Positions 29,170 through 56,443 of a stretch of 64,000 nucleotides of DNA are shown here, in pieces. The stretch lies in contig OZ025796.1 in assembly GCA_964019425.1 (NCBI GenBank), positions 868,001-932,000 of the forward strand, in the 5' to 3' direction. The position numbers and the translations under genes were made by a program. Every line of letters starts with the position of its first letter. The stretch's first letter is position 1. The notes under the pieces were generated by a model. It made no database searches, was not told the DNA's origin, and worked only from the letters and a program-made list of their open reading frames with translations. This DNA is from Flectonema sp. DT1601 (taxonomy: Eukaryota).

Positions 29170-29418
29170 AATGTATTGTTCTGCTGTTTTGTATGACACT
29201 GTAGAAAGCGTAGTTTCAGACCTTAATCTTATACTACTTGTCCCTTTTTTTGGCCTTCATCGGTAAGTTTTTGGGACTTTATTCTAAATTACTTGTAAAT
29301 CAGTTTCAAGAGTGGTTCTTATCGTAAGAACTGATAAGAGCATAGAGCTTACCAGGACACGTTAGCATACACTTGCTTTTGTTTAACTAAGTTGTATCTC
29401 TTCCGGTGCGGCGTGTTA
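29170..29418 (-). mobile_element. Dispersed repeat family A, copy 1 (carries a rearranged hammerhead-like motif)
   Basis: Aligns by eye with 46455-46650, 46695-46806, 51445-51567 and 42328-42420, e.g. shared + strand strings ttgtaaatcagtttcaa and agcatacacttgcttttgt...aactaagttgtat...cggtgcggcgtgtt. Confidence 0.8.
29210..29277 (-). ncRNA. Candidate non-circularly permuted hammerhead ribozyme (U4C variant in this copy)
   Basis: Minus strand reads GTCCC AAAAA CTTA CCGATGA AGGCC AAAAAAA GGGAC AA GTAG TA TAAG ATTAA GGTCT GAAA CTAC. Stem I CTTA/TAAG, stem II AGGCC/GGTCT, stem III ACTAC/GTAGT, cleavage triplet GUA, extra helix GTCCC/GGGAC. Confidence 0.65.
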
Positions 29419-33431: not shown

Positions 33432-34574
33432 CTAAGACCCCATTCTTTGCATACCAAGTGACCACGGAGTTTCCGCCCCATACTGCATTGGCATTGTTGG
33501 CAAGTGAGGGAATCCCGTAAGCAGGTTTTGCATTGAGGGCATGGATGCATACGGCATTCCATACGTCCCCATTGGGTCCGCCAATGTCGTCGTTGGCAAA
33601 GCATTCTTATTCATCATACCTACACCAGATTGTTGTAATAATTGTTGTTGTTGTTGGAATTGTACTTCTCGTTTTCTGAGATCCTTATCAGATTCATATT
33701 GAGATGACTCTTGGTAAATCCCCAAGACTGAACGAATATTATAGCTACCTCTGCTACTGAATAAGGGAGACCCGATCGCAAAGTTGTGAAAGCTATCGTC
33801 AACATAAGGATCTATTTCAACTCTCCATCTGTCGCATTGTTCTTTGAAATCACAGGTTTCAGTAGTAAACATGACACTCACCGCAGGAAGGAATTTGTTT
33901 AGCTGATCAAAACCTAGAGAAGCCAACTGTGGGGGAATTTTGTAGAACTTTTCCCACATGTTGAATACTTCCCAAATCATTGCACATCTATCGATGATCG
34001 CTAATCGCTCAGTACATTTGTAATAAAACATTCGAATTATCCAAGTTCCTTGAATCCTGCTCCAGTCAGAGTTGTCAGGGTTTCCAATCACATTAATTGG
34101 AAGAATATTTTGAAATATTAAATACCTTTCATTAGCAGGGAACACTAGCTTCATATTTTCAAGAACAAAAGCAAGGGTTTGACTCCGATAAACTTGATTT
34201 TTATTTTTACGAAGTCCTCCAGTAATCTTTAATATCATGTCAGCATGTGTTTCAGATCGAGTTCGCTTTAGACAAAACCCATCGTTGCATAACTTCTCTC
34301 TGAATTCGTGCAAACATCCTTGCAGATCCTTATTAGATGATGAACCGTATAAGCAACTTTTGTCTAAATGACGTTGGATGAGACTAATCATTCTACCTAT
34401 CATCGACTGAGCATCTCCAGGACCGTTCCATTCAACTCTACAAAGCGTGTCTACTATTGATGATGCCACTAGATCAAATCTTTTTTCCGCTACAGGATTA
34501 TGATCAACTAGATTCTTAACGATTCCCTCCAGGGCTTCTCGTATGTATCGACGCATTATCTCCATAGTAGCCAT
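33432..34574 (-). CDS. Orphan family long form A1 (380 aa; DNSDW domain, Q/M/P-rich tail)
   Basis: Clear paralogy with 54957-55862 (ILP.N....DNSDW..IQ.TW.IR.FYY.C...RC.......WE...PPQLA.L). Poly-T + AGCAG acceptor just before the ATG. Confidence 0.8.
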   Translation of the reverse strand: MATMEIMRRYIREALEGIVKNLVDHNPVAEKRFDLVASSIVDTLCRVEWNGPGDAQSMIGRMISLIQRHLDKSCLYGSSSNKDLQGCLHEFREKLCNDGFCLKRTRSETHADMILKITGGLRKNKNQVYRSQTLAFVLENMKLVFPANERYLIFQNILPINVIGNPDNSDWSRIQGTWIIRMFYYKCTERLAIIDRCAMIWEVFNMWEKFYKIPPQLASLGFDQLNKFLPAVSVMFTTETCDFKEQCDRWRVEIDPYVDDSFHNFAIGSPLFSSRGSYNIRSVLGIYQESSQYESDKDLRKREVQFQQQQQLLQQSGVGMMNKNALPTTTLADPMGTYGMPYASMPSMQNLLTGFPHLPTMPMQYGAETPWSLGMQRMGS

Positions 34575-36064
34575 GGTGTTAGTTATGGCCTGCTAAAAAA
34601 AAAAAAAAAAAAGAAATAATCTCCAGGTGATCTCGCTTAGGCCTATTTCTAGAGACTTCAAACACCTCCTACCTGTGGTTAAGTAGTTTTAATTTAAAAA
34701 ATAACGTCGTGACAACCGTTTAGAAAACATTTCACCACTCACAGGGCGCGATGTATGGAATAATACTTCACTTAACTTCCATTAATAGAATCCAAATATA
34801 AAAAACAAAATTCTTATTACTATGGGAAAGCTAATACAATAGTGAACTTTGTTTGTAGTTGTGTATTCCAACCAGCGATATAATCTCTCTCACTACGCAA
34901 GTAGACGCAGATATTGATAAAATGAGAGCAGCTAAGATAGAGGACAAAAACATGTGTCATTTACGTTTCTTCCTTTTATTTTATTTGCCTCGGGCAATCC
35001 TCACAATAATTTCGTACAGTTATTTTTAATCAGTGCTACCATGATTGGGTTGAATCTGTAATCGAAATAAAAAGAGTAATACAAATCAGAATTACCATTC
35101 CTTGATTCACCAAGAGTTTCGTTATTCGTACGAATCCCTCACACTGTTGTTTCAAACAAACAAAAAAAAAAAAAGAAAAAAAAAAAAATAGGAGACACAA
35201 TACAGAAAGATTTCTTTCTCATTCGTCACCTTATTACACTTCAGTTTCTTTTTTTTAAACACTGTTACAGAAAAAGCGAATGAAAGCGTTGGTTATTTGT
35301 ATTTTATAAAACAGGGGTAAGTTATTGATATTACCAGCAGTGACAGAACTTAATTGATAAAACTCGGTTCAGATGTGCAACTCCGCTACACTTTTGGTTT
35401 AAGTTTTATCATTCCCTTCTACACTACGATGAAAACAATAAGGAAAAGTGGAGATAAATTCCACTTATGTGGAATTGGAAGCCACACTTTCTTTATAAAA
35501 AGGAGGTTGGATTCAGAAAATGGCAAAATGAAAAAATGTAAAAAGTAAAAACACCTCATCCAGTGACGAATCTTATCTACCGTTGCACACTACTAATGGA
35601 GCACACGTCACAAGACTGTGAATCATTTTCAAAGCAGGCATCGTTTAACAGGAAGGAGCGAAGGACTGAAAGTATAACGACGTAGAGGCTCAATCATTTC
35701 TACCATAACATTAATTAGTTATTTTCAAGTTCTCGAAACTCCTGTTGCCGCGCGAATTAGATCCAAAAAAAAGAAAAATAAAGTTTCAATAGTGTATTGC
35801 GTGAAGCAACCAGACAAAACACAAGGAAACAGAAATGGAGGTTCGGATAAATAAATAATTAATAAGAGGGGAAGGGTGAGAATTTTCTTGCATTTGTGCA
35901 AAATTTGGCTTCATTTTTTTTTTTCTTTTTTTTTTTGTAAGTAACCACTATTGACGTCACGGATATCAAACCCAAAGGGAGATCAACAAGAACACTTTCT
36001 CAAAAAAGTGTGTAGTAACTCTCCCAATTGGGACGAAATCTCGACGAACAATAGTAATTACTTA

Positions 36065-36427
36065 CTATTCCTTTGATTGAATTACGGCGTTGATATCAAC
36101 TTCATATGGTTCAAAGCGGTACTTGTCTCCATCTACCATCAGATCTGACGTAACAACCTGCCTCAGACTGAATTCTCTTAATCTGGTTCTCAACTGCCAC
36201 ACCCATGGATCCAAAATTTTGCGGCTCGGATTGCACTGCAACAGTGGTTGCATTTCCTCAAGTATGTCAATCACTCGTCCAACAAGAATGAAAGGTTGCT
36301 TTCTTAAGACTTCCTTCATCGACTTTTCAATGCGGGCGATGCGGTGAAATCCCAACTCAGGGTGACCATTAGACAGCGAATAATGGACTGCATTATGCAT
36401 TTCAAGATCACAAAATCTCTTGACCAT
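36065..36427 (-). CDS. Orphan family short form B (120 aa), copy 1
   Basis: Homologous over its whole length to 53336-53719 (HPE; PSRK.LD.WV..L; GDKYRFEPYEVDINAV vs GDRYRHCPYAVGHNAV). Confidence 0.72.
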   Translation of the reverse strand: MVKRFCDLEMHNAVHYSLSNGHPELGFHRIARIEKSMKEVLRKQPFILVGRVIDILEEMQPLLQCNPSRKILDPWVWQLRTRLREFSLRQVVTSDLMVDGDKYRFEPYEVDINAVIQSKE

Positions 36428-36692
36428 TTTGTTTGTGACAATTGGGGAAACTGATACAAGATTATTTATTCAGCCGCACACTCACACAATAACATTCAAA
36501 CTGCTACCCAACGTAGTAGCCCAGACAAGTAGACAGCATTACTGCACAAGCAGACATATTTGTGAAAGCATCTGAATGAAGAACAGTTTGGGGGTCACCA
36601 ATAAATGAAACATCAACAAGAATAATATCATGGCATGCATTAATCGTATGTGTTTCGCTTACTCTGATAGGTTGCACCTCTTCTGGTGCAAC

Positions 36693-38272: not shown

Positions 38273-38635
38273 CTATTCCTTTGATTGAATTACGGCGTTG
38301 ATATCAACTTCATATGGTTCAAAGCGGTACTTGTCTCCATCTACCATCAGATCTGACGTAACAACCTGCCTCAGACTGAATTCTCTTAATCTGGTTCTCA
38401 ACTGCCACACCCATGGATCCAAAATTTTGCGGCTCGGATTGCACTGCAACAGTGGTTGCATTTCCTCAAGTATGTCAATCACTCGTCCAACAAGAATGAA
38501 AGGTTGCTTTCTTAAGACTTCCTTCATCGACTTTTCAATGCGGGCGATGCGGTGAAATCCCAACTCAGGGTGACCATTAGACAGCGAATAATGGACTGCA
38601 TTATGCATTTCAAGATCACAAAATCTCTTGACCAT
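38273..38635 (-). CDS. Orphan family short form B (120 aa), copy 2 (identical protein)
   Basis: Duplicate of 36065-36427. Confidence 0.72.
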   Translation of the reverse strand: MVKRFCDLEMHNAVHYSLSNGHPELGFHRIARIEKSMKEVLRKQPFILVGRVIDILEEMQPLLQCNPSRKILDPWVWQLRTRLREFSLRQVVTSDLMVDGDKYRFEPYEVDINAVIQSKE

Positions 38636-41019
38636 TTTGTTTGTGACAATTGGGGAAACTGATACAAGATTATTTATTCAGCCGCACACTCACACAATAA
38701 CATTCAAACTGCTACCCAACGTAGTAGCCCAGACAAGTAGACAGCATTACTGCACAAGCAGACATATTTGTGAAAGCATCTGAATGAAGAACAGTTTGGG
38801 GGTCACCAATAAATGAAACATCAACAAGAATAATATCATGGCATGCATTAATCGTATGTGTTTCGCTTACTCTGATAGGTTGCACCTCTTCTGGTGCAAC
38901 GTAGAGTGATTTTTTTTCTTCTTTTTTTCCTTTGCAAAAATAAAGGACTTTCAGAAATTGACAAAAGCCGGCAGACGTGAAAGGAAGTTTACGCGTGGTT
39001 CGACGAGGATTCTGGCAAAAACGCACCGAGGAGGAGGAAACCACAGCTTTTCCCTCTTCACCTACTTGTTCGTTTTTTTTTTTTTGTTTTTGTTTTTTCA
39101 ATGAGAAAAGACAGATTTATGATGAACTTTTTGAAAACAATCTAAAGCCAAAAGCAATGTCTCGCAAAAAAAAAAAAAAAGAAAAAAAAAAAAAACGAAC
39201 GAACGAAAAAAAGAAAAAAAAAACGAGAGGAAAAAAAAAACAAAAAAAAAAACAAAAAAAAAAAGGCTTGATGCCGAAAAGTAAAAAAGAATAGAGAAAA
39301 AAAAAAGGGGGAAAAATACAAAGAATTCTGTTGAACTAAGAAAAATACTGGGTTCGAAAAATGTTTTAACGAATATGGTTTGCAACAGACTGGATCGTGA
39401 ATACGAGACGATAGTGACTACCTAGCCCAAGTAGAAAAATAAATCATAATCCAGCAAAGCGAAGCGCATTGCGCATCGATGTAAGCTACCACGAAAAAAA
39501 AGATAGGGTAGTCAACATGATACTGCTGCAACGCATGACAGACTTAATTCGTGGTTTTTTCATTGTTTAGTTCTGTAAAAAAATACTACATAAACAAAAT
39601 GAGAAGGGACGGAGTATATTATCCAGCTCGACGGTACCCGAAATGGAAGCTTTTGAAAATAAAAAAATAAAAAATAAAAAGAATCCTCTTTTCATTATTT
39701 ATTCAAATCTATGAACCATAAATAAAAAACCGAAAAAAGGAAGGGTGGAATCGTGAGAGGAAGAATCCAACATTTCGGCGAGTAACTCAAAAGAAAAAGA
39801 GAGTGAAAAAAAGGAGGCAGCGTTAACTTAAACAGAAGTACAACTAACGAGATCATTACGCGTGCTATCCAATATTTCTATTCCAATCATCACACTACAC
39901 GAACAGCGTACCAACACATCATAAACACGCTAAACCACGGCGCTGCTTACTTTCAACCAATTTTTGAATGCAATTTTCAGCGTTTGTTTGTAAAAAGGTC
40001 AGAGAGTGAAAACCCTGGAAATGATTTCGGACAGAGACCATTCGCTAGGTCCCCGAAGGGTTCCAGGATGAATTGAATTTTTGCTTGTAAGCGAATAACG
40101 TTTTTGGATTATAGGTCAGTGTATCAATGCAAGATATAGCGATGGACATATTTTCCGATACACACCGTTCGTCATATTTCAGAGAAGCAAGTATAAAATA
40201 AACAGAAAAGTGACTTATTAGCTAATAAAATTGATCTTCAAATCCGTTATCAATATAAAAAAGAAGAAAAAAAAAAAAAAAAAAAACATATCATGGAGAG
40301 ACCTGTCGTTCTTTATACACTTGTCACATCAAAAAAAAAAAAAAAAAAAAAGAAAACAAGTAAATAAATAGATAGAATAATTGTTTTAAAAAAGAAATAA
40401 ATCTCAGAAGGTCACATATTTCCATTACTTTGTCAGTGCACTTTGGATACTAAGAAGAATACTTGTCGTTGGAAGAAGCATTCTCATCACGTCTTGAACC
40501 GCTTACCATATCAGTACAACCTTCCAACTCACATAAGACACATAGGATACGGAAAATCAACCAGCATTTGTATTCAAAAAAAGAGTAGAAAATCAAAATT
40601 CTAACTTTTAAACAAAAAAAAAGAAAAAAAAAAAAAAGAAAAAAAAGAATATCAAATCACAGCTCACCAGTACTGCAAGAAAACAACTGCAACGACGCGA
40701 GCGCACGTTAAGGATAAAACTAATAAAAAATAAAAAAAGTAGCAGCTTCATGCCCAATAACTAGCAAGCACGAAAAAGAAGAAGAAAAAAAAGAAAGAAA
40801 AAAAATTGTAAACTTACTAATGGATAAAAAGAGAGGAGATTGTTGATTACTATGCAGCCGACTATTTCCTTTTGAAAAATAGTTGAAAGGGAATGGAAAA
40901 AATTATAAAAAAACATCATTTATGAGGTATAATAGACGATATCGATTCGCCCGTGCCTAGTCTTGGGAAAGATAAAAGAAAATAAAGGAAAAATGTGTCA
41001 GGTTGCATGTATTTTTTTT

Positions 41020-41110
41020 CTTTTGAAACCAGTGAAGTCACAACCCCTGGGGAGGCTCACATGGCTACACAGTAATTCGGTGCCACAACTGTGAGACTCC
41101 CACAGGCGAG
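41020..41110 (-). repeat. Degenerate copy of repeat family B
   Basis: gctcaca...caactgtgagactcccacaggcga resembles gctcaca...caaccgtgagactctcacagacga at 47823-47875. Confidence 0.5.
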
Positions 41111-41742
41111 AAGAGACGCAGCTCACGTAAGCTGAATGGAATTAAAAAAAAAGATAAATGAAAAAAATAATAATGAATTGCGGACACCTTCAACCTAGTA
41201 TTTGTTTTCTATCAGATTTCTTACTAAGAGGGACTGCCAGCATGATACGCAATTCTATTTCTACCTCTCAGAACTTTACACTATTTTACCTGCCGGTTTA
41301 TACATTTTTTTGTATGTAACAAGTATTGTAAGAACGAAAAAAGAATGTTGCACACGTAAACCTCCTTTAGCTTTTTCAGTTCAAGTCGGTTCGCGGTTTT
41401 GTGCACAAACAAAACATCAACAAGTGTTATATTACTATTTCTGTATAGCTTAAGGTAAAAGTCAATTCCTTTTTTTTTTCAGAATAGTGCTTTTTGATAG
41501 TAAGGATAGAGGAAGAAGAAGAAAAATCAGGTCTCAGAAGAAATATCGTTCAGTGATTTTTCGTTTTTCTTTTTTTTTTTTTTTTGCAATGTGACTGTGG
41601 CGCGCGCACTGAATTCCGTTTCGGGAAAATGTGGTTGTGACGCTTGTGTTTTTTGTGATGCGTGATTGTTGTTGTTAATCCAATAATCACAGTTTTTTTT
41701 GTACCTGCATTTTTTTTATTGAGGGTAAGAATTGATCACAAA

Positions 41743-46454: not shown

Positions 46455-46806
46455 ATAGTTCTGCTGTTCCCTTTTTGGTCTTTATCAGTAAGTTCTAGAG
46501 ACTTTTATATTCTAAATTTCTTGTAAATCAGTTTCAAAAGTGGTTCTTATCGTAAAAACCAACATGTCGATTGGAACTCGCAAGGACTGGCAAAAGCATA
46601 CACTTGCTTTTGTCTAACTAAGTTGTATTTCTTTCGGTGCGGCGTGTTTAATATCAGCCGCACTTTTTTAAGTTAGTATTATTAATTTTGGCATTAGAAA
46701 AGTGAGAATTAAAATAAATAGAGATAAGTAAAACGAAAAGTTTTTCATTTCTGCAGTTTCCTAACATCTTGGGTAATATGTAGTAGTTTCAGGCCTTAAT
46801 TTTATA
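46455..46806 (-). mobile_element. Repeat family A, head-to-tail monomer-like copy (~345 nt) with split hammerhead halves
   Basis: Minus strand begins TA|TAAA ATTAA GGCCT GAAA CTACT (46806-46782), runs through the element body, and reaches CTTA CTGATAA AGACC AAAAA GGGA (46492-46468), followed by a deletion relative to copy 1. Confidence 0.75.
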
Positions 46807-47782
46807 ATCTTAGTTAGATAGTTTTTTAAAAACTTAATAAAAGGAGAGGGGGAAAAAAGAATAATAAAAAAAAGACCTGAGAAGCTGATCGACAGAACAA
46901 TGTAGGTAAGGAAGCAAACTAAATCCGTCACTTCGGGGAAAAAATTGGCTCCGAGGACACATGTAGATTGGCTCTTTCATGGGTTTAGGTTGAAGGGTCT
47001 GCAGAGGGTCTCTCGGACTGGCCTTCTGTGTGCGGGTTACATGTCACCTCCAATGGGTTATATATTCTACAGAAGGGTACTAAATTAACTTAAAATATTA
47101 AGCTACAGGAGGATAGTTTCAACGGAAAATAATAATGTAAAAAGAAAATAACAGAACACACAGTACCACTCAATATGATAAAAAAAGAATAAATAAATAA
47201 ATAAAATAATCATTCCATGCAGTTATAAGAAACTCAAAGGTCCTACGGGATGTTTTTTTTTTTTTTTAAAAGAAAAAAATCAAAGGGAAAAAAAACATTT
47301 TATTTTTAAAAAAAAAAAAAAAAAAAACATTTACGTAGACTAGTTTCAATCTGAAATTATATTAAAAAAGTAAAAAGGGGGGAAATCAACAACAAAAAAA
47401 AAAGAAAAAAAAAAAGAACTGCACGATAACGCCTATTTTCACGTAACTAGGAAAACAATGGCAGCAAATTAGATAAAAAAATAATCCATTATCACTAACA
47501 TACTGCAGAGAGAGCGTTCACAGGAGAAATAATTAACTCCACCAGAGCCTCAATACAGCTGAAGCGCGCGGACCGAGTCTTGTATAAGATTGAAAGATAT
47601 AGGTTGTTTTAGGCTTACAGAGTTCTGAGTTAAAACACAGCGAGCTGATACTAGGCTTAGAAGGCTTATTTGGCTATTTGAGTATTCTGAAAAAAAAATA
47701 ATTTACGGTAAGGGGAAAAAAAAAAAAAAGAAAAGTGGCGAAATGAATTAAATCACCGCCACTAAAAATATTTTATTTTTTT

Positions 47783-47877
47783 TTATTTATTTACGAAGCC
47801 TAGGAGCCAAAAGCCAGGAAAAGCTCACAGGGTAACAGCTATCGCTACCAGCAACCGTGAGACTCTCACAGACGATA
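47783..47877 (-). mobile_element. Repeat family B copy, (TAAA)n-tailed SINE/LINE-3'-end-like fragment
   Basis: Near-identical to 48702-48797; on the minus strand it ends ...GGCTTCG(TAAA)n. Confidence 0.7.
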
Positions 47878-48682: not shown

Positions 48683-48890
48683 TTTATTTATTTATTTATT
48701 TATTTATTTACGAAGCCTAGGAAGCCAAAAGCCAGGAAAAGCTCACAGAGTAACAGTATAATCGCTACCAGCAACCGTGAGACTCTCACAGACGATAAAA
48801 GACGTAGAATAACCTGGAACAAATGACTACCTAAACCCACCGTCCACGCGAGCAGACAGTGTTAGAGACGGCTGATAACGCCAATTTTCG
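48683..48890 (-). mobile_element. Repeat family B copy with ~7 TAAA tail units
   Basis: Longest copy; its extension (48818-48882) aligns with 49186-49252. Confidence 0.7.
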
Positions 48891-49076
48891 AGCCAAAGAG
48901 AGGGAGAACACGCCACATTAGATATCTTGCAAATCAGTTCTTTGCATTGGCTTTTAAAAGAAGATGGCAGAATGTGATTATCAACACGTCTGGTTTACAT
49001 ACATTGTTCTACTTCCCATGCTTCCCTATCACAATAGTTCTGCAGTCTAAAGTAATTTTATTCATTTTTTTTTTCT

Positions 49077-49255
49077 TATTTACTTTACGAAACTAAAAAA
49101 TCAGGAAAAATTCACAGAGTACCAATTAGATCGCTACCACAAATTCGTAAGGCTCACTGACATCAAGAGACATATAAGAATCTAAAACAAATAACAACCT
49201 TGACCCACTACCCGCGTTAGCGGACAGTGTTACAGTAGGCTGGTAATGCCTAATG
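49077..49255 (-). mobile_element. Diverged repeat family B copy
   Basis: tttacgaa...caggaaaaattcacagagtac...atcgctacca...aacaaataacaacct...cggacagtgtta is colinear with 48707-48882. Confidence 0.6.
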
Positions 49256-53335: not shown

Positions 53336-53719
53336 TCAGCATTTGAGCTTTGTTGAGGATTCTTTAATCCTAACAGCATTATGCCCCACAGCATAGGGAC
53401 AATGACGGTATCTGTCACCGCTGCTATCACCTGCTGCAAAAACAGGACCTTGTAGAAAATAACGTTTTACTTCAGTCTTCAGGTGATAAACCCAAAAATC
53501 TAATTCCCTGCGGCTAGGATCTCGTTTTAGCTGATGCAGCATCTGTTCAACAACATAAAGTATTGTTTTGATGGGAGTATAAAATGAGATTCTGCTAAGC
53601 TGTTCCTCCACTGAAGTTACAATTCGACGTCTCCAATTAACCTTAACTTCTGGATGAATAGTTTTCACCTTTGCGCATACGAGCTTCTGAAGGTTGTGTA
53701 TCTCCGATGCTTCAATCAT
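53336..53719 (-). CDS. Orphan family short form B2 (127 aa, start MIEASE)
   Basis: Full-length similarity to the 120-aa ORFs; TTTGTACAG acceptor shortly upstream of the ATG. Confidence 0.72.
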   Translation of the reverse strand: MIEASEIHNLQKLVCAKVKTIHPEVKVNWRRRIVTSVEEQLSRISFYTPIKTILYVVEQMLHQLKRDPSRRELDFWVYHLKTEVKRYFLQGPVFAAGDSSGDRYRHCPYAVGHNAVRIKESSTKLKC

Positions 53720-54039
53720 ATTACGTGGCAGGGGAGGAAAATCTGTACAAACGATAACTTTAATGTGCAATTAATTTTTTTAATCTCAGCATCTAGATCC
53801 TCTACCTCATCACATCAACTATGAATAATAAATCCTAACATAGAGAAAGTAATATAAACAATAAAACAATGGAATAACGAACCGTAAAGAAAAAAGTGAT
53901 TAACAACAGATTTGTTTTCACACACTCTGTGCTGCAGGTAACACATGTACACAGAGGTATTTAATTAATCTTTTATTCCTCTCGTTGTTTTTTTCTAATT
54001 TTTATTTCCTTTTTTTTTTTTTGTTTTTCCCGCAATACC

Positions 54040-54680
54040 TACCAATGCTTCAGGGGTGGGATGGAATGACTCAATCAAGAAATGACTGCAGGTTGTTAGC
54101 TGCTGATCGCGGCGAATCCCGCCGCGACCTGCAGCCAACAAGCTGCAGATCAACTCAACTAGTGATTGGGTAGTGTTTCGTATTTCATCATGAACAGTTT
54201 TCTTTTCTTTTTTTCTTTCCTTTCGAATTTTACTCTCCCTTTTTCGCAACACCTACCGCAGGGGTGATTTGGGTAAATAAATCAAGGTTAACACGGGATG
54301 GGGGAATAACTAATCAAGAAATGCTGACTAACTATACAAAACATACATTTATATATAGTTTGGCAGGGTGACGGCAGAATTCCGAGGAGTCTACCCCTTC
54401 GGATCCGCCGCGACCAGCCGATAACCTGCAGATATCATGAACAGTTTTCTTTTCATTTTTATATTTTTTTTTTTTTTTCATCGTTTTCCTTTCCTTCCGA
54501 ATTTTACTATCCCTCTTTCACACGTGTGGTGAGTGGCAGAATAATCCAAGAAATGCTGACTAACTATACATACATACATATATATATAGTAGGCTGCTGG
54601 CGGCGCAGAATTCGGAGGAGTCTGCCCCTCCGAATTGCGACCACCAGCTAACTTGCAAACTCGCAGATAACTCGACCATA
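54040..54680. repeat. Three diverged ~235-bp tandem units, each with a GC-rich hairpin
   Basis: aat(c)caagaaatg at 54073, 54312 and 54543; tcatgaacagttttcttt at 54188 and 54435; hairpins at 54086-54148, 54372-54410 and 54596-54649. Confidence 0.75.
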
Positions 54681-54761: not shown

Positions 54762-54857
54762 CTTCTTTTTAGTAGGATGCTGTTGCCGACTCGTGAATTG
54801 AACCTTCGCTTGAAGTTACAATTCACGATTGAGCAACAGCATCCTACTAAAAAGAAG
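54762..54857. repeat. 96-nt near-perfect inverted repeat (hairpin) downstream of gene A2
   Basis: Perfect 25-bp arms 54762-54786/54833-54857, then 10 bp 54791-54800/54819-54828, a short bulged stem and a 4-nt loop. Confidence 0.9.
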
Positions 54858-54956: not shown

Positions 54957-55862
54957 TCAACTGAGATAATGACCTGAAGGAAGACTTGGTTGTTGTGGAA
55001 CGTGTGGAGACGAAGATTGTTTTTCCCAACGAATAGTATCCGTAGTAGAGTACGGGTTGTGGGTGTAAACACCAGTGCATTGAATAGATTCCTCGATAGC
55101 TCTAAAGGGAAATTGACGTAACCTCGCTAAAACGTATGGAGTCTGCTCCCTCTTCCAATTGTCCAGATTCCGCCTGAAAGCTGCGTCATCCTCAAGGAAA
55201 ACAATCCATGAGGGAGGAAGTAATGTTTTGAGACAATCTGCTTTTAAAAAAGCAAGTTGCGGAGGAACGCTGAAGTCTTCACTACCTGCTGAGATCTCCC
55301 ACTTTCTAAATAAATCTCTAACAACATCACAACGACTGTCATTAGTCATTTGTCCACTGCATTGATAATAGAATAATCTAATGTTCCAGGTACTTTGGAT
55401 TATTGTCCAATCAGAATTGTCAGCTCTGATTTCACCATTCATAGGAAGTATTGATTTCAGTGATGTTTTTGTTCCCTCACTGTTGAATCCAAGATTAGTA
55501 AGGATGCACCACATAGTGTTTGCTCTGTGAATGTGACTAGAGTTTTCCTCAACTCCGTCACATATTCTCAAGACCTCAGCTGCTGCTTCAGTATTTTCTG
55601 TTAAGGTGGAACGAAGTTCATACTTCTGCCGCAATGATTCCTTAAGAAGATGCAACCAACTCTCAAAGACTTTGATACTCGGGGTTTCAGGTAATTTCTG
55701 AACTTCATTTTCCAAAATCCGACGAATATCATGAAGACAAGGGAAGTGCTTGATCTTTGTAAGTAGATCTGTGATCGCTTTAGCGTTGCGCGTTGTTTTC
55801 TTATTCGTCACCTTAGATAGAATACTAAGCACAACTGAACCTAATTCTCCAATGCAGCTCAT
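54957..55862 (-). CDS. Orphan family long form A2 (301 aa, start MSCIGE)
   Basis: Paralog of 33432-34574; TTTTTTTCCTTCAG acceptor upstream of the ATG. Confidence 0.8.
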   Translation of the reverse strand: MSCIGELGSVVLSILSKVTNKKTTRNAKAITDLLTKIKHFPCLHDIRRILENEVQKLPETPSIKVFESWLHLLKESLRQKYELRSTLTENTEAAAEVLRICDGVEENSSHIHRANTMWCILTNLGFNSEGTKTSLKSILPMNGEIRADNSDWTIIQSTWNIRLFYYQCSGQMTNDSRCDVVRDLFRKWEISAGSEDFSVPPQLAFLKADCLKTLLPPSWIVFLEDDAAFRRNLDNWKREQTPYVLARLRQFPFRAIEESIQCTGVYTHNPYSTTDTIRWEKQSSSPHVPQQPSLPSGHYLS

Positions 55863-56443
55863 TGTTAGATGTTGACAGCTACTCCCCTGAAGGAAAAAAA
55901 ATAACTTCTTTATAAGCAACACAACAACGAATTCTCAGGTAATAATCTGCCTTCATCACGAATTTGATTTTTTTTAAAACTACTCGAAAAGAAGAAGAAA
56001 AAACGATAAATACAAAGCAAGCATAATTATTGTTAATAAATAAGTAGCTTCCCCTTTCCTCTGTCTCTTCTTCTTTTTTTTTTTTTTTTTTTTTTGGCAG
56101 CATACAAGATCATCTTTTTTGCTTGCCCCAGTCCTTTTCAATTGTAGTTGAGAAAGGCAGGGAGTGCAGCCTCGGTGTTACTTGAGGACCGCTTTTTAAT
56201 TATTACAACGAATAAAATAAAATAAAAAAAATCAACACAAAAAATAATAATAACAATGGCAAGGCAGCCATCGATTAATCTAAAACTCGTCAATAGAGAA
56301 AGAACAGGGAAGGTAAGCTTCTTATCACTATATCTATTCTTTCTCATATTCCATGCTCTGTTCAAACATACAATCTGATGACAGAAGCAGTCTCAGTTGT
56401 CGTAGTCGCGGTGATCACTTCCCATCGTTATCTGTTGAAGCTA

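Follow-up and report, generated by a model that had tools for sequence, protein, structure and literature searches.

The motif located at positions 29277–29210 on the minus strand of the window, i.e., the whole 64-kb stretch of DNA analysed here, is probably a decaying hammerhead ribozyme of type CSG, lodged in a short repeat that is presumably a non-autonomous retroelement of Flectonema sp. DT1601, a diplonemid (marine protist; Euglenozoa). It shows every structural characteristic of this type that was tested: the order of the blocks, stems I to III and the joining helix. Its descent from a real CSG hammerhead is very likely and, given this descent, the carrier is fairly likely to be a Penelope-like or a retrozyme-like element. 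The block order is not new in itself; the host setting and a family with unrelated stems are.

The hammerhead blocks C, G and S were defined by Eckert et al. 2023 (PMC10085705), and the order C-S-G was designated type CSG. In the account given there, the type is based on two similar DNA sequences from soil metagenomes with eight differences, for which no host or element is named; the two, named CSG-1 and CSG-2, self-cleave at 0.004 and 0.026 per min. The authors consider the type "likely valid", with a weaker support than type SGC, and describe its sequences as DNA-derived and unassociated with other ribozymes (PMC10085705). The preliminary description of the Flectonema motif had presented such a rearranged order as a rarity reported from a Xenopus repeat. 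This precedent was not sustained: the order had already been named and tested from soil metagenomes, and Xenopus is absent from the main text of PMC10085705 and appears once in its supplement, in connection with a type III ribozyme. In the literature searched, from which subscription papers are largely absent, the terms "type-CSG" and "type-SGC" occur only in PMC10085705, "permuted hammerhead" occurs in no paper, and none of the papers listed for diplonemids together with ribozymes deals, by its title, with hammerheads.

In the 29.2-kb motif, the three blocks follow one another from 5' to 3' as C (CUGANGA), S (cleavage site) and G (GAAA), each of them uninterrupted. Block C (29270–29252) comprises the 5' strand of stem I, the core sequence CCGAUGA (29263–29257) and the 5' strand of stem II; block S (29237–29225) includes the 5' strand of stem III, the cleavage triplet GUA and the 3' strand of stem I, which runs into a GAUUA word; and block G (29222–29210) is formed by the 3' strand of stem II, GAAA (29217–29214) and the 3' strand of stem III. 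Stem I pairs 29267–29264 with 29231–29228 (4/4), with two more pairs beyond an A-A mismatch; stem II pairs 29256–29252 with 29222–29218 (5/5; A-U, G-C, G-U, C-G and C-G), and stem III pairs 29237–29233 with 29214–29210 (5/5). Pair by pair, the three stems close at the hammerhead core positions. The only core change is U4C at 29262, so that 11 of the 12 conserved positions (CUGANGA, GAAA, UH) are intact in this copy, which is the best one; no copy is perfect. A fourth helix, P4, is formed by 29277–29273 and 29244–29240 (5/5 pairs), and the cut is predicted at 29232|29231. The coordinates, the pairings and the GUA cut site had been correctly given in the preliminary description, and the fourth helix that it gave is supported.

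Two adjacent hairpins can be formed by these sequences: P4 encloses the CUGANGA block, and stem III encloses the S and G blocks. They are joined by two A's, and their loops are complementary to each other at two places, which correspond to stems I and II. The predicted nested fold of the motif consists of P4 and stem III (z −2.89), and in a context of 370 nt the pair probabilities are 0.99–1.0 for P4 and 0.93–1.0 for P4 and stem III overall. Stems I and II score zero in this calculation because pseudoknots are beyond the folding program; taken as duplexes on their own, both are weak (−0.8 and −4.8 kcal/mol). By analogy with the CSG and SGC ribozymes already published, the P4 loop and the stem III loop would kiss through stems I and II, and the kissing loops would restore the usual hammerhead core in the form of a double pseudoknot that may be cut 3' of GUA. 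Two features of the folding would also suit an accidental likeness, or an RNA that never took this fold, the repeat being then AT-rich sequence in which two commonplace hairpins occur: a 4-bp inner hairpin within stem III competes for the 3' strand of stem II, and the reverse strand folds about equally well (z −2.37).

The motif shares with CSG-1 and CSG-2, as presented in PMC10085705, the C-S-G order, the arrangement of stems I to III as a double pseudoknot (presumed for the motif), the length (66 nt for CSG versus 68 nt for the motif), a P4 that links the leader with the strand following stem II, the 2-nt linker to stem III, and the word AUUAA ahead of the 3' strand of stem II. On the other hand, the stem sequences are unrelated; the motif has A-U at positions 10.1–11.1, where the CSG and SGC rows compared have G-C; unpaired A-rich linkers lie between its P4 and stems I and II; its triplet is GUA instead of GUC; and the gap after stem II is 12–14 nt, whereas the CSG descriptor allows 10. 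In addition, CSG-1 and CSG-2 were obtained from soil DNA and their cleavage was demonstrated, whereas the motif lies in a eukaryotic nuclear repeat and its cleavage is predicted. Since the published descriptor demands G-C at 10.1–11.1 and a gap of no more than 10 nt, it would miss this family; for the same two features the motif is not filed in the CSG-1/2 sequence family, these being settings of the descriptor and not part of the definition of the type. Likewise, comparison with Rfam revealed nothing at the gathering score in the window, no ribozyme-like match for the motif up to an E value of 10, and nothing at E 0.05 in 26.5–33.6 kb or 38.9–53.4 kb. The idea that the motif escapes standard descriptors was in this way borne out.

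The other published relatives are the SGC variants, for which an alignment of 33 rows is available (PMC10085705). They have the same two hairpins, which in the motif would kiss as they do in these ribozymes, and, in a comparison by eye, share the word GAUUA after the first three bases of stem I, GUC within stem II and AA following the 5' strand of stem II; one of the rows, again by eye, has the eight bases that follow the cut in the motif. In contrast, their hairpins are in the opposite order, they have AUC where the motif has AAC, they often have one unpaired U where the motif has an extra A-U pair beside the core, and their source is contigs of metagenomes and metatranscriptomes.

How often this layout would arise by chance was estimated with a descriptor that covered the six block orders on both strands, allowed one core mismatch and demanded stems of at least 4 bp. 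Its single match in the 64-kb window was the 29.2-kb motif, identified as CSG; the orders CGS, GSC and SCG, i.e., those of hammerhead types I to III, were absent within 90 nt, which agrees with the earlier statement that the order CUGANGA, UH, GAAA is a non-circular permutation. Dinucleotide-shuffled windows, 1212 in number, were matched 119 times by the loose CSG descriptor and four times by the strict one (4/5/5 pairs); when stems of 4/5/5 pairs and a fourth helix of at least 5 bp were demanded together, two of 2536 further shuffled windows matched. At these rates, a scan of approximately 250,000 windows would still yield chance matches, therefore evidence from outside is needed. When the GAUUA word of the published SGC-variant alignment is also required, the chance per window falls to about 1e-6 with P4 uncounted, a rough figure from an order-2 Markov model with approximately seven simulated events and with features chosen after seeing the motif. 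It is from the two values, 2/2536 and about 1e-6 with the published words, that an accidental likeness was judged improbable. The abundance of loose matches and the lack of covariation described below speak for the accident; against it stand the fit to a layout that was defined elsewhere and tested experimentally (PMC10085705) and to non-core words, the exact CUGAUGA supplied by a second full copy, and the behaviour of pattern matches in public collections.

Among these pattern matches, all three stems of at least 3 bp were found in none of 57 viral matches, none of a further 36 viral matches, none of 11 matches in prokaryote genomes and none of the 119 metagenome matches, of about 130, that were filtered for pairing. 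This near absence indicates that the words by themselves do not bring such pairing with them. The metagenome result is nonetheless weak as a negative, because the scan missed the published CSG-1 and CSG-2 although both fit its pattern. In another viral set, with 120 of about 600 matches filtered, one locus (L127) had 3/5/4 pairs and a UUU triplet; it was taken as chance. A family-specific 22-nt pattern gave no match, and a covariance model (R1) detected no new copy in the 64-kb window (next match, E 0.56) and none in 100 of the 119 metagenome loci. No outside homologue was found across the viral, phage, metagenome and prokaryote collections scanned; BLASTN against phage sequences gave no match, and four 55-nt BLASTN matches to Borrelia plasmids (E 8e-3) were taken as AT-rich chance. 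Two of the metagenome-pattern loci look by eye like ordinary type I hammerheads: L187, on the minus strand near 988, and L226, on the plus strand near 472.

The motif belongs to a dispersed repeat, as had been proposed. Four insertions, all of them on the minus strand, were detected in the 64-kb window with BLASTN, nhmmer and the covariance model. The insertion at 29.4–29.15 kb consists of a segment U upstream (29417–29278), the full ribozyme, and a downstream segment A (29209–29150, with an uncertain end). Segment U is homologous to 46648–46503, with 51/56, 19/38 and 42/46 identical positions in three consecutive parts, and segment A has 52–58% identity to the copies of another segment, B, a value matched by 0–2 of 200 shuffles. 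The second insertion (46812–46445) is a partial tandem with the order ribozyme 3' half (starting at 46812 or 46804 and ending at 46783), B, U, ribozyme 5' half (46502–46468, with the core change G8A), a deletion, and A. The third (51567–51420) has the second full ribozyme, 51557–51493, followed by segment B, and the fourth (42419–42300) consists of segment B alone, with no detectable ribozyme part upstream; a ribozyme half proposed for that place was unsupported (115 and 333 of 500 shuffles scored as high). Considering A as a diverged B, the repeat unit would be ribozyme-B-U, with a period of approximately 346–348 nt that is observed once, as the partial tandem with its diverged downstream segment. 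A short hairpin in segment B, 46783–46750 (minus strand), is kept in all three B copies. The words beside it resemble the loop B consensus of the hairpin ribozyme; such a ribozyme was rejected, with no loop A partner seen by eye and no Rfam match. Segment U opens with a 7-bp GC-rich hairpin (46663–46637, minus strand), inside which the 29.4-kb copy starts.

The beginning of the 46.8-kb insertion is of particular interest for the predicted cleavage. Positions 46812–46805 are identical to the first eight bases past the predicted cut, and a 7/8 copy of them comes next; the sequence upstream is unlike both of the full copies (138 and 127 of 500 shuffles scored as high). From the eight-base match and the unrelated sequence upstream, homology in this insertion starts within 2 nt of the cut. 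As a sign of cleavage this start is suggestive only, because the other three insertions begin elsewhere (1/4 at the cut). The same insertion bears on whether the blocks act in an order other than CSG, either as SGC across 281 nt, in a circular order across units, or as GCS with an upstream GAAA. Its S and G blocks are ahead of block C, a GAAA at 29307 allows a 3-bp GCS alternative, and many eukaryotic hammerheads are described as acting as dimers (PMC4209133). Pairing of adjacent blocks needs a linker of 2 nt only, as in CSG-1 and CSG-2, the published SGC linkers are of 0–44 nt (PMC10085705), the GCS alternative fails when stems of 4 bp are demanded, and the orders of types I to III are, as mentioned above, missing within 90 nt; a different working order is thus very improbable.

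With regard to conservation, the 51.5-kb copy has, as had been noted, an intact CUGAUGA, and its stems I, II and III have 4, 4 and 5 pairs; however, this copy breaks one pair of stem II and two of the six P4 pairs (P4 retains five consecutive pairs at 46.5 kb), has G at position 17 and lacks one A of GAAA. Likewise, the stem II variants AGACC and GGCCU are present, but they come from half copies and are mutually mismatched at one pair. A core defect had been ascribed to every copy: U4C, G8A, and G17 with the lost A were found as described, but GAAA of the 46.8-kb half is unchanged, so that the four core changes, among 34 observed positions, affect three of the four fragments. Each position of the core is still intact in one copy or more, and this pattern is the outcome that would be expected of neutral decay from an intact ancestor, without being proof of present function. 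When the 29.2-kb copy is compared with the 51.5-kb one, 54/69 positions of the ribozyme (78%) and 37/70 of the 3' flank (53%) are identical, and the 5' flank is unrelated; the ribozyme is therefore the best-kept part in that pair. In the comparison with the 46.5-kb copy, however, the ribozyme half (32/46, counting end gaps) is less conserved than the two ends of segment U. In an alignment of four rows, 43 of 47 cells pair, versus 26–46% in slid controls, a biased control, since one of the aligned rows supplied the structure. The covariation check, limited in the window to two full copies, revealed three one-sided changes that keep the pair, and none of the 22 pairs changed on both sides. Altogether, the copies of the window look like relics without detectable selection.

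Decay does not necessarily imply that all activity was lost. In a viroid, the U4C variant showed a lowered activity that was sufficient in vivo and allowed infectivity (PMC3088659), and G17 is reported to be tolerable in tertiary-stabilised hammerheads (PMC3884650). By analogy, U4C would not necessarily be fatal for the 29.2-kb copy, and its cutting still at a measurable rate is conceivable, albeit doubtful.

These changes also matter for another possibility, a domesticated signal for RNA processing or decay, i.e., a weakened ribozyme, retained on the transcribed strand of a polycistronic gene cluster, that would cut or destabilise the precursor between genes. All 16 stop-to-stop frames of at least 250 aa in the 64-kb window are on the minus strand, the same as the four insertions. 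The arrangement of the frames agrees with the Diplonema papillatum genome, whose genes are described as forming unidirectional, probably co-transcribed clusters (PMC10161547), and a ribozyme with U4C or G17 could keep some activity. Opposed to this are the core changes in three of the four fragments, two of which are halves, and a motif no better conserved than the best flanks; furthermore, four insertions on one strand have a 1 in 8 chance, and other repeats share the strand. A domesticated signal is, in consequence, distinctly improbable.

The 29.2-kb motif is intergenic (26.7–33.4 kb), and the other copies are located in a gene-poor stretch (39–53 kb), alongside other decayed repeats. A second decayed minus-strand family, with ends in TAAA, was observed at 47772–47877, 48683–48882, 49057–49250 and 41007–41121; it includes a partial tandem with a period of approximately 370 nt and is retroposon-like. 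There are also a GC-rich hairpin repeat with two copies about 230 nt apart (54311–54430 and 54542–54657), an inverted repeat of 46 bp with a 4-nt loop (54762–54857), a small repeat pair (46011–46057/51853–51899) and a small inverted pair (41305–41420/49484–49345). A degenerate fragment of LSU rRNA lies at 46891–47000 (plus strand), maybe reaching approximately 47060, about 80 nt from the 46.8-kb insertion and on the opposite strand; it was detected in an Rfam scan of 701 bases (E 2.5e-5) and is absent from the output of a 14.5-kb scan. This piece was considered as a target site and found unsupported, given the distance of about 80 nt, the single insertion involved, and the abundance of such pieces in Diplonema; approximately 3600 scattered 28S pieces are reported for D. 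papillatum (PMC10161547).

The gene-poor region is flanked by an orphan gene family (33435–34592 and 54960–55934, minus strand), to which the members seen by eye at 36068–36469, 38276–38677 and 53339–53770 can be added. Its two long ORFs have 33% identity over 193 aa; no Pfam family was found, the database matches were only three, including itself, and the Atlas had none above 0.78. It was considered as a mobile-element gene and rejected, with no sign of such nature. A mitochondrial carrier in the window identifies the host as a diplonemid, by an identity of 88% with a protein of Flectonema neradi and of 62% with proteins of Diplonema japonicum and D. ambulator. Other features are a cytochrome b5 domain and several globin domains, which lie in adjacent ORFs (20646–24303, minus strand), and a 2.2-kb tandem duplication (34492–36695/36700–38903) with 99.7% identity, which is either very recent or an assembly artefact.

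The nature of the carrier was considered in the light of the known elements with hammerheads. A non-LTR retrozyme is defined by a type I hammerhead per unit and two complete units (10.64898/2026.07.22.740005); the repeat lies outside this definition, given that its hammerhead has the order CSG and that two consecutive complete units are absent from the 64 kb, where one partial tandem with two half ribozymes was found. The retrozymes and the pseudo-LTR hammerheads of Penelope-like elements, as described (10.64898/2026.07.22.740005, PMC4209133, PMC8557442), resemble the repeat in having a short non-coding unit with one hammerhead each and in their partial tandems and truncated dispersed copies; the partial tandem with a diverged tail is in particular like Penelope-like insertions (PMC8557442). 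They differ in that their hammerheads are type I and that no ORF for a reverse transcriptase-endonuclease lies beside the repeat. Beside a Penelope-like element an ORF for a reverse transcriptase, with or without GIY-YIG, would be expected. Neither the 18 long ORFs of the 64-kb window nor 137 of its 169 short frames (the other 32, of low complexity, were dropped beforehand) yielded a reverse transcriptase or endonuclease family, and no reverse transcriptase remnant was seen; such an absence from 64 kb would still suit a non-autonomous derivative. Protist Penelope-like elements are described as carrying hammerheads of the monomer type (PMC4209133), and one Penelope-like element was reported to insert in vitro without needing cleavage by its hammerhead (PMC11167929). 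These surveys do not extend to diplonemids: diplonemids and Euglenozoa are unmentioned in PMC8557442, and euglenids in PMC4209133. For the Naiad and Chlamys elements (Craig et al. 2021, PMC8557442), canonical hammerheads were reported to be absent and "HHR half cores" to be present; in eight of these elements the second half core is 35–50 nt from the first, and the halves of the motif are 39 nt apart. This link, made by setting the motif beside the published description, is only a lead.

In the mechanism that we favour for this presumed retroelement, RNA transcribed through partial tandem copies would be cleaved at intervals of ~346 nt. The unit-length products, in linear or circular form, would then undergo reverse transcription in trans, with a Penelope-like enzyme as the likeliest agent, in keeping with what was proposed for Penelope-like elements and animal retrozymes (PMC4209133, 10.64898/2026.07.22.740005). 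A different origin, in which the ribozyme is real but derives from a circular, viroid-like RNA (about 346 nt, of the sort with SGC ribozymes) that was occasionally reverse-transcribed into the genome, with no Penelope-like ancestry, is unlikely, though it has several points in its favour. In a circular molecule SGC and CSG are one and the same order, the words nearest to the motif belong to the metatranscriptomic SGC-variant family, which its authors linked to virus-like circular RNAs (PMC10085705), the window has no coding partner, and one insertion covers nearly one cut-to-cut unit. Against such a circle, the opposite strand of the unit is without a ribozyme, both in a relaxed hammerhead scan and in Rfam up to E 10; the diverged A and B tails, together with the diverged middle part of U, point to several genomic master copies; and the published CSG sequences came, as mentioned, from DNA and stand apart from other ribozymes.

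If the reading as a CSG hammerhead in a retroelement is correct, a CSG family with unrelated stems and the same periphery, in a repeat of a named eukaryotic host, would independently confirm the type, and would give it a first biological setting, with a known host and a likely role in a jumping repeat. It also illustrates how current descriptors overlook such ribozymes. The words shared with the SGC variants suggest that CSG and SGC interconvert by a swap of the hairpins, which offers a testable answer to the question raised by the authors of PMC10085705 on the origin of non-circular permutations. Taken one step further, and only as a tentative proposal, a lineage of euglenozoan retroelements may cut its RNA to units by a CSG hammerhead that is an SGC variant with its hairpins swapped; knotted hammerheads would then be one family, shared by circular replicons and nuclear retroelements, and could explain part of the "hammerhead-less" Penelope-like elements.
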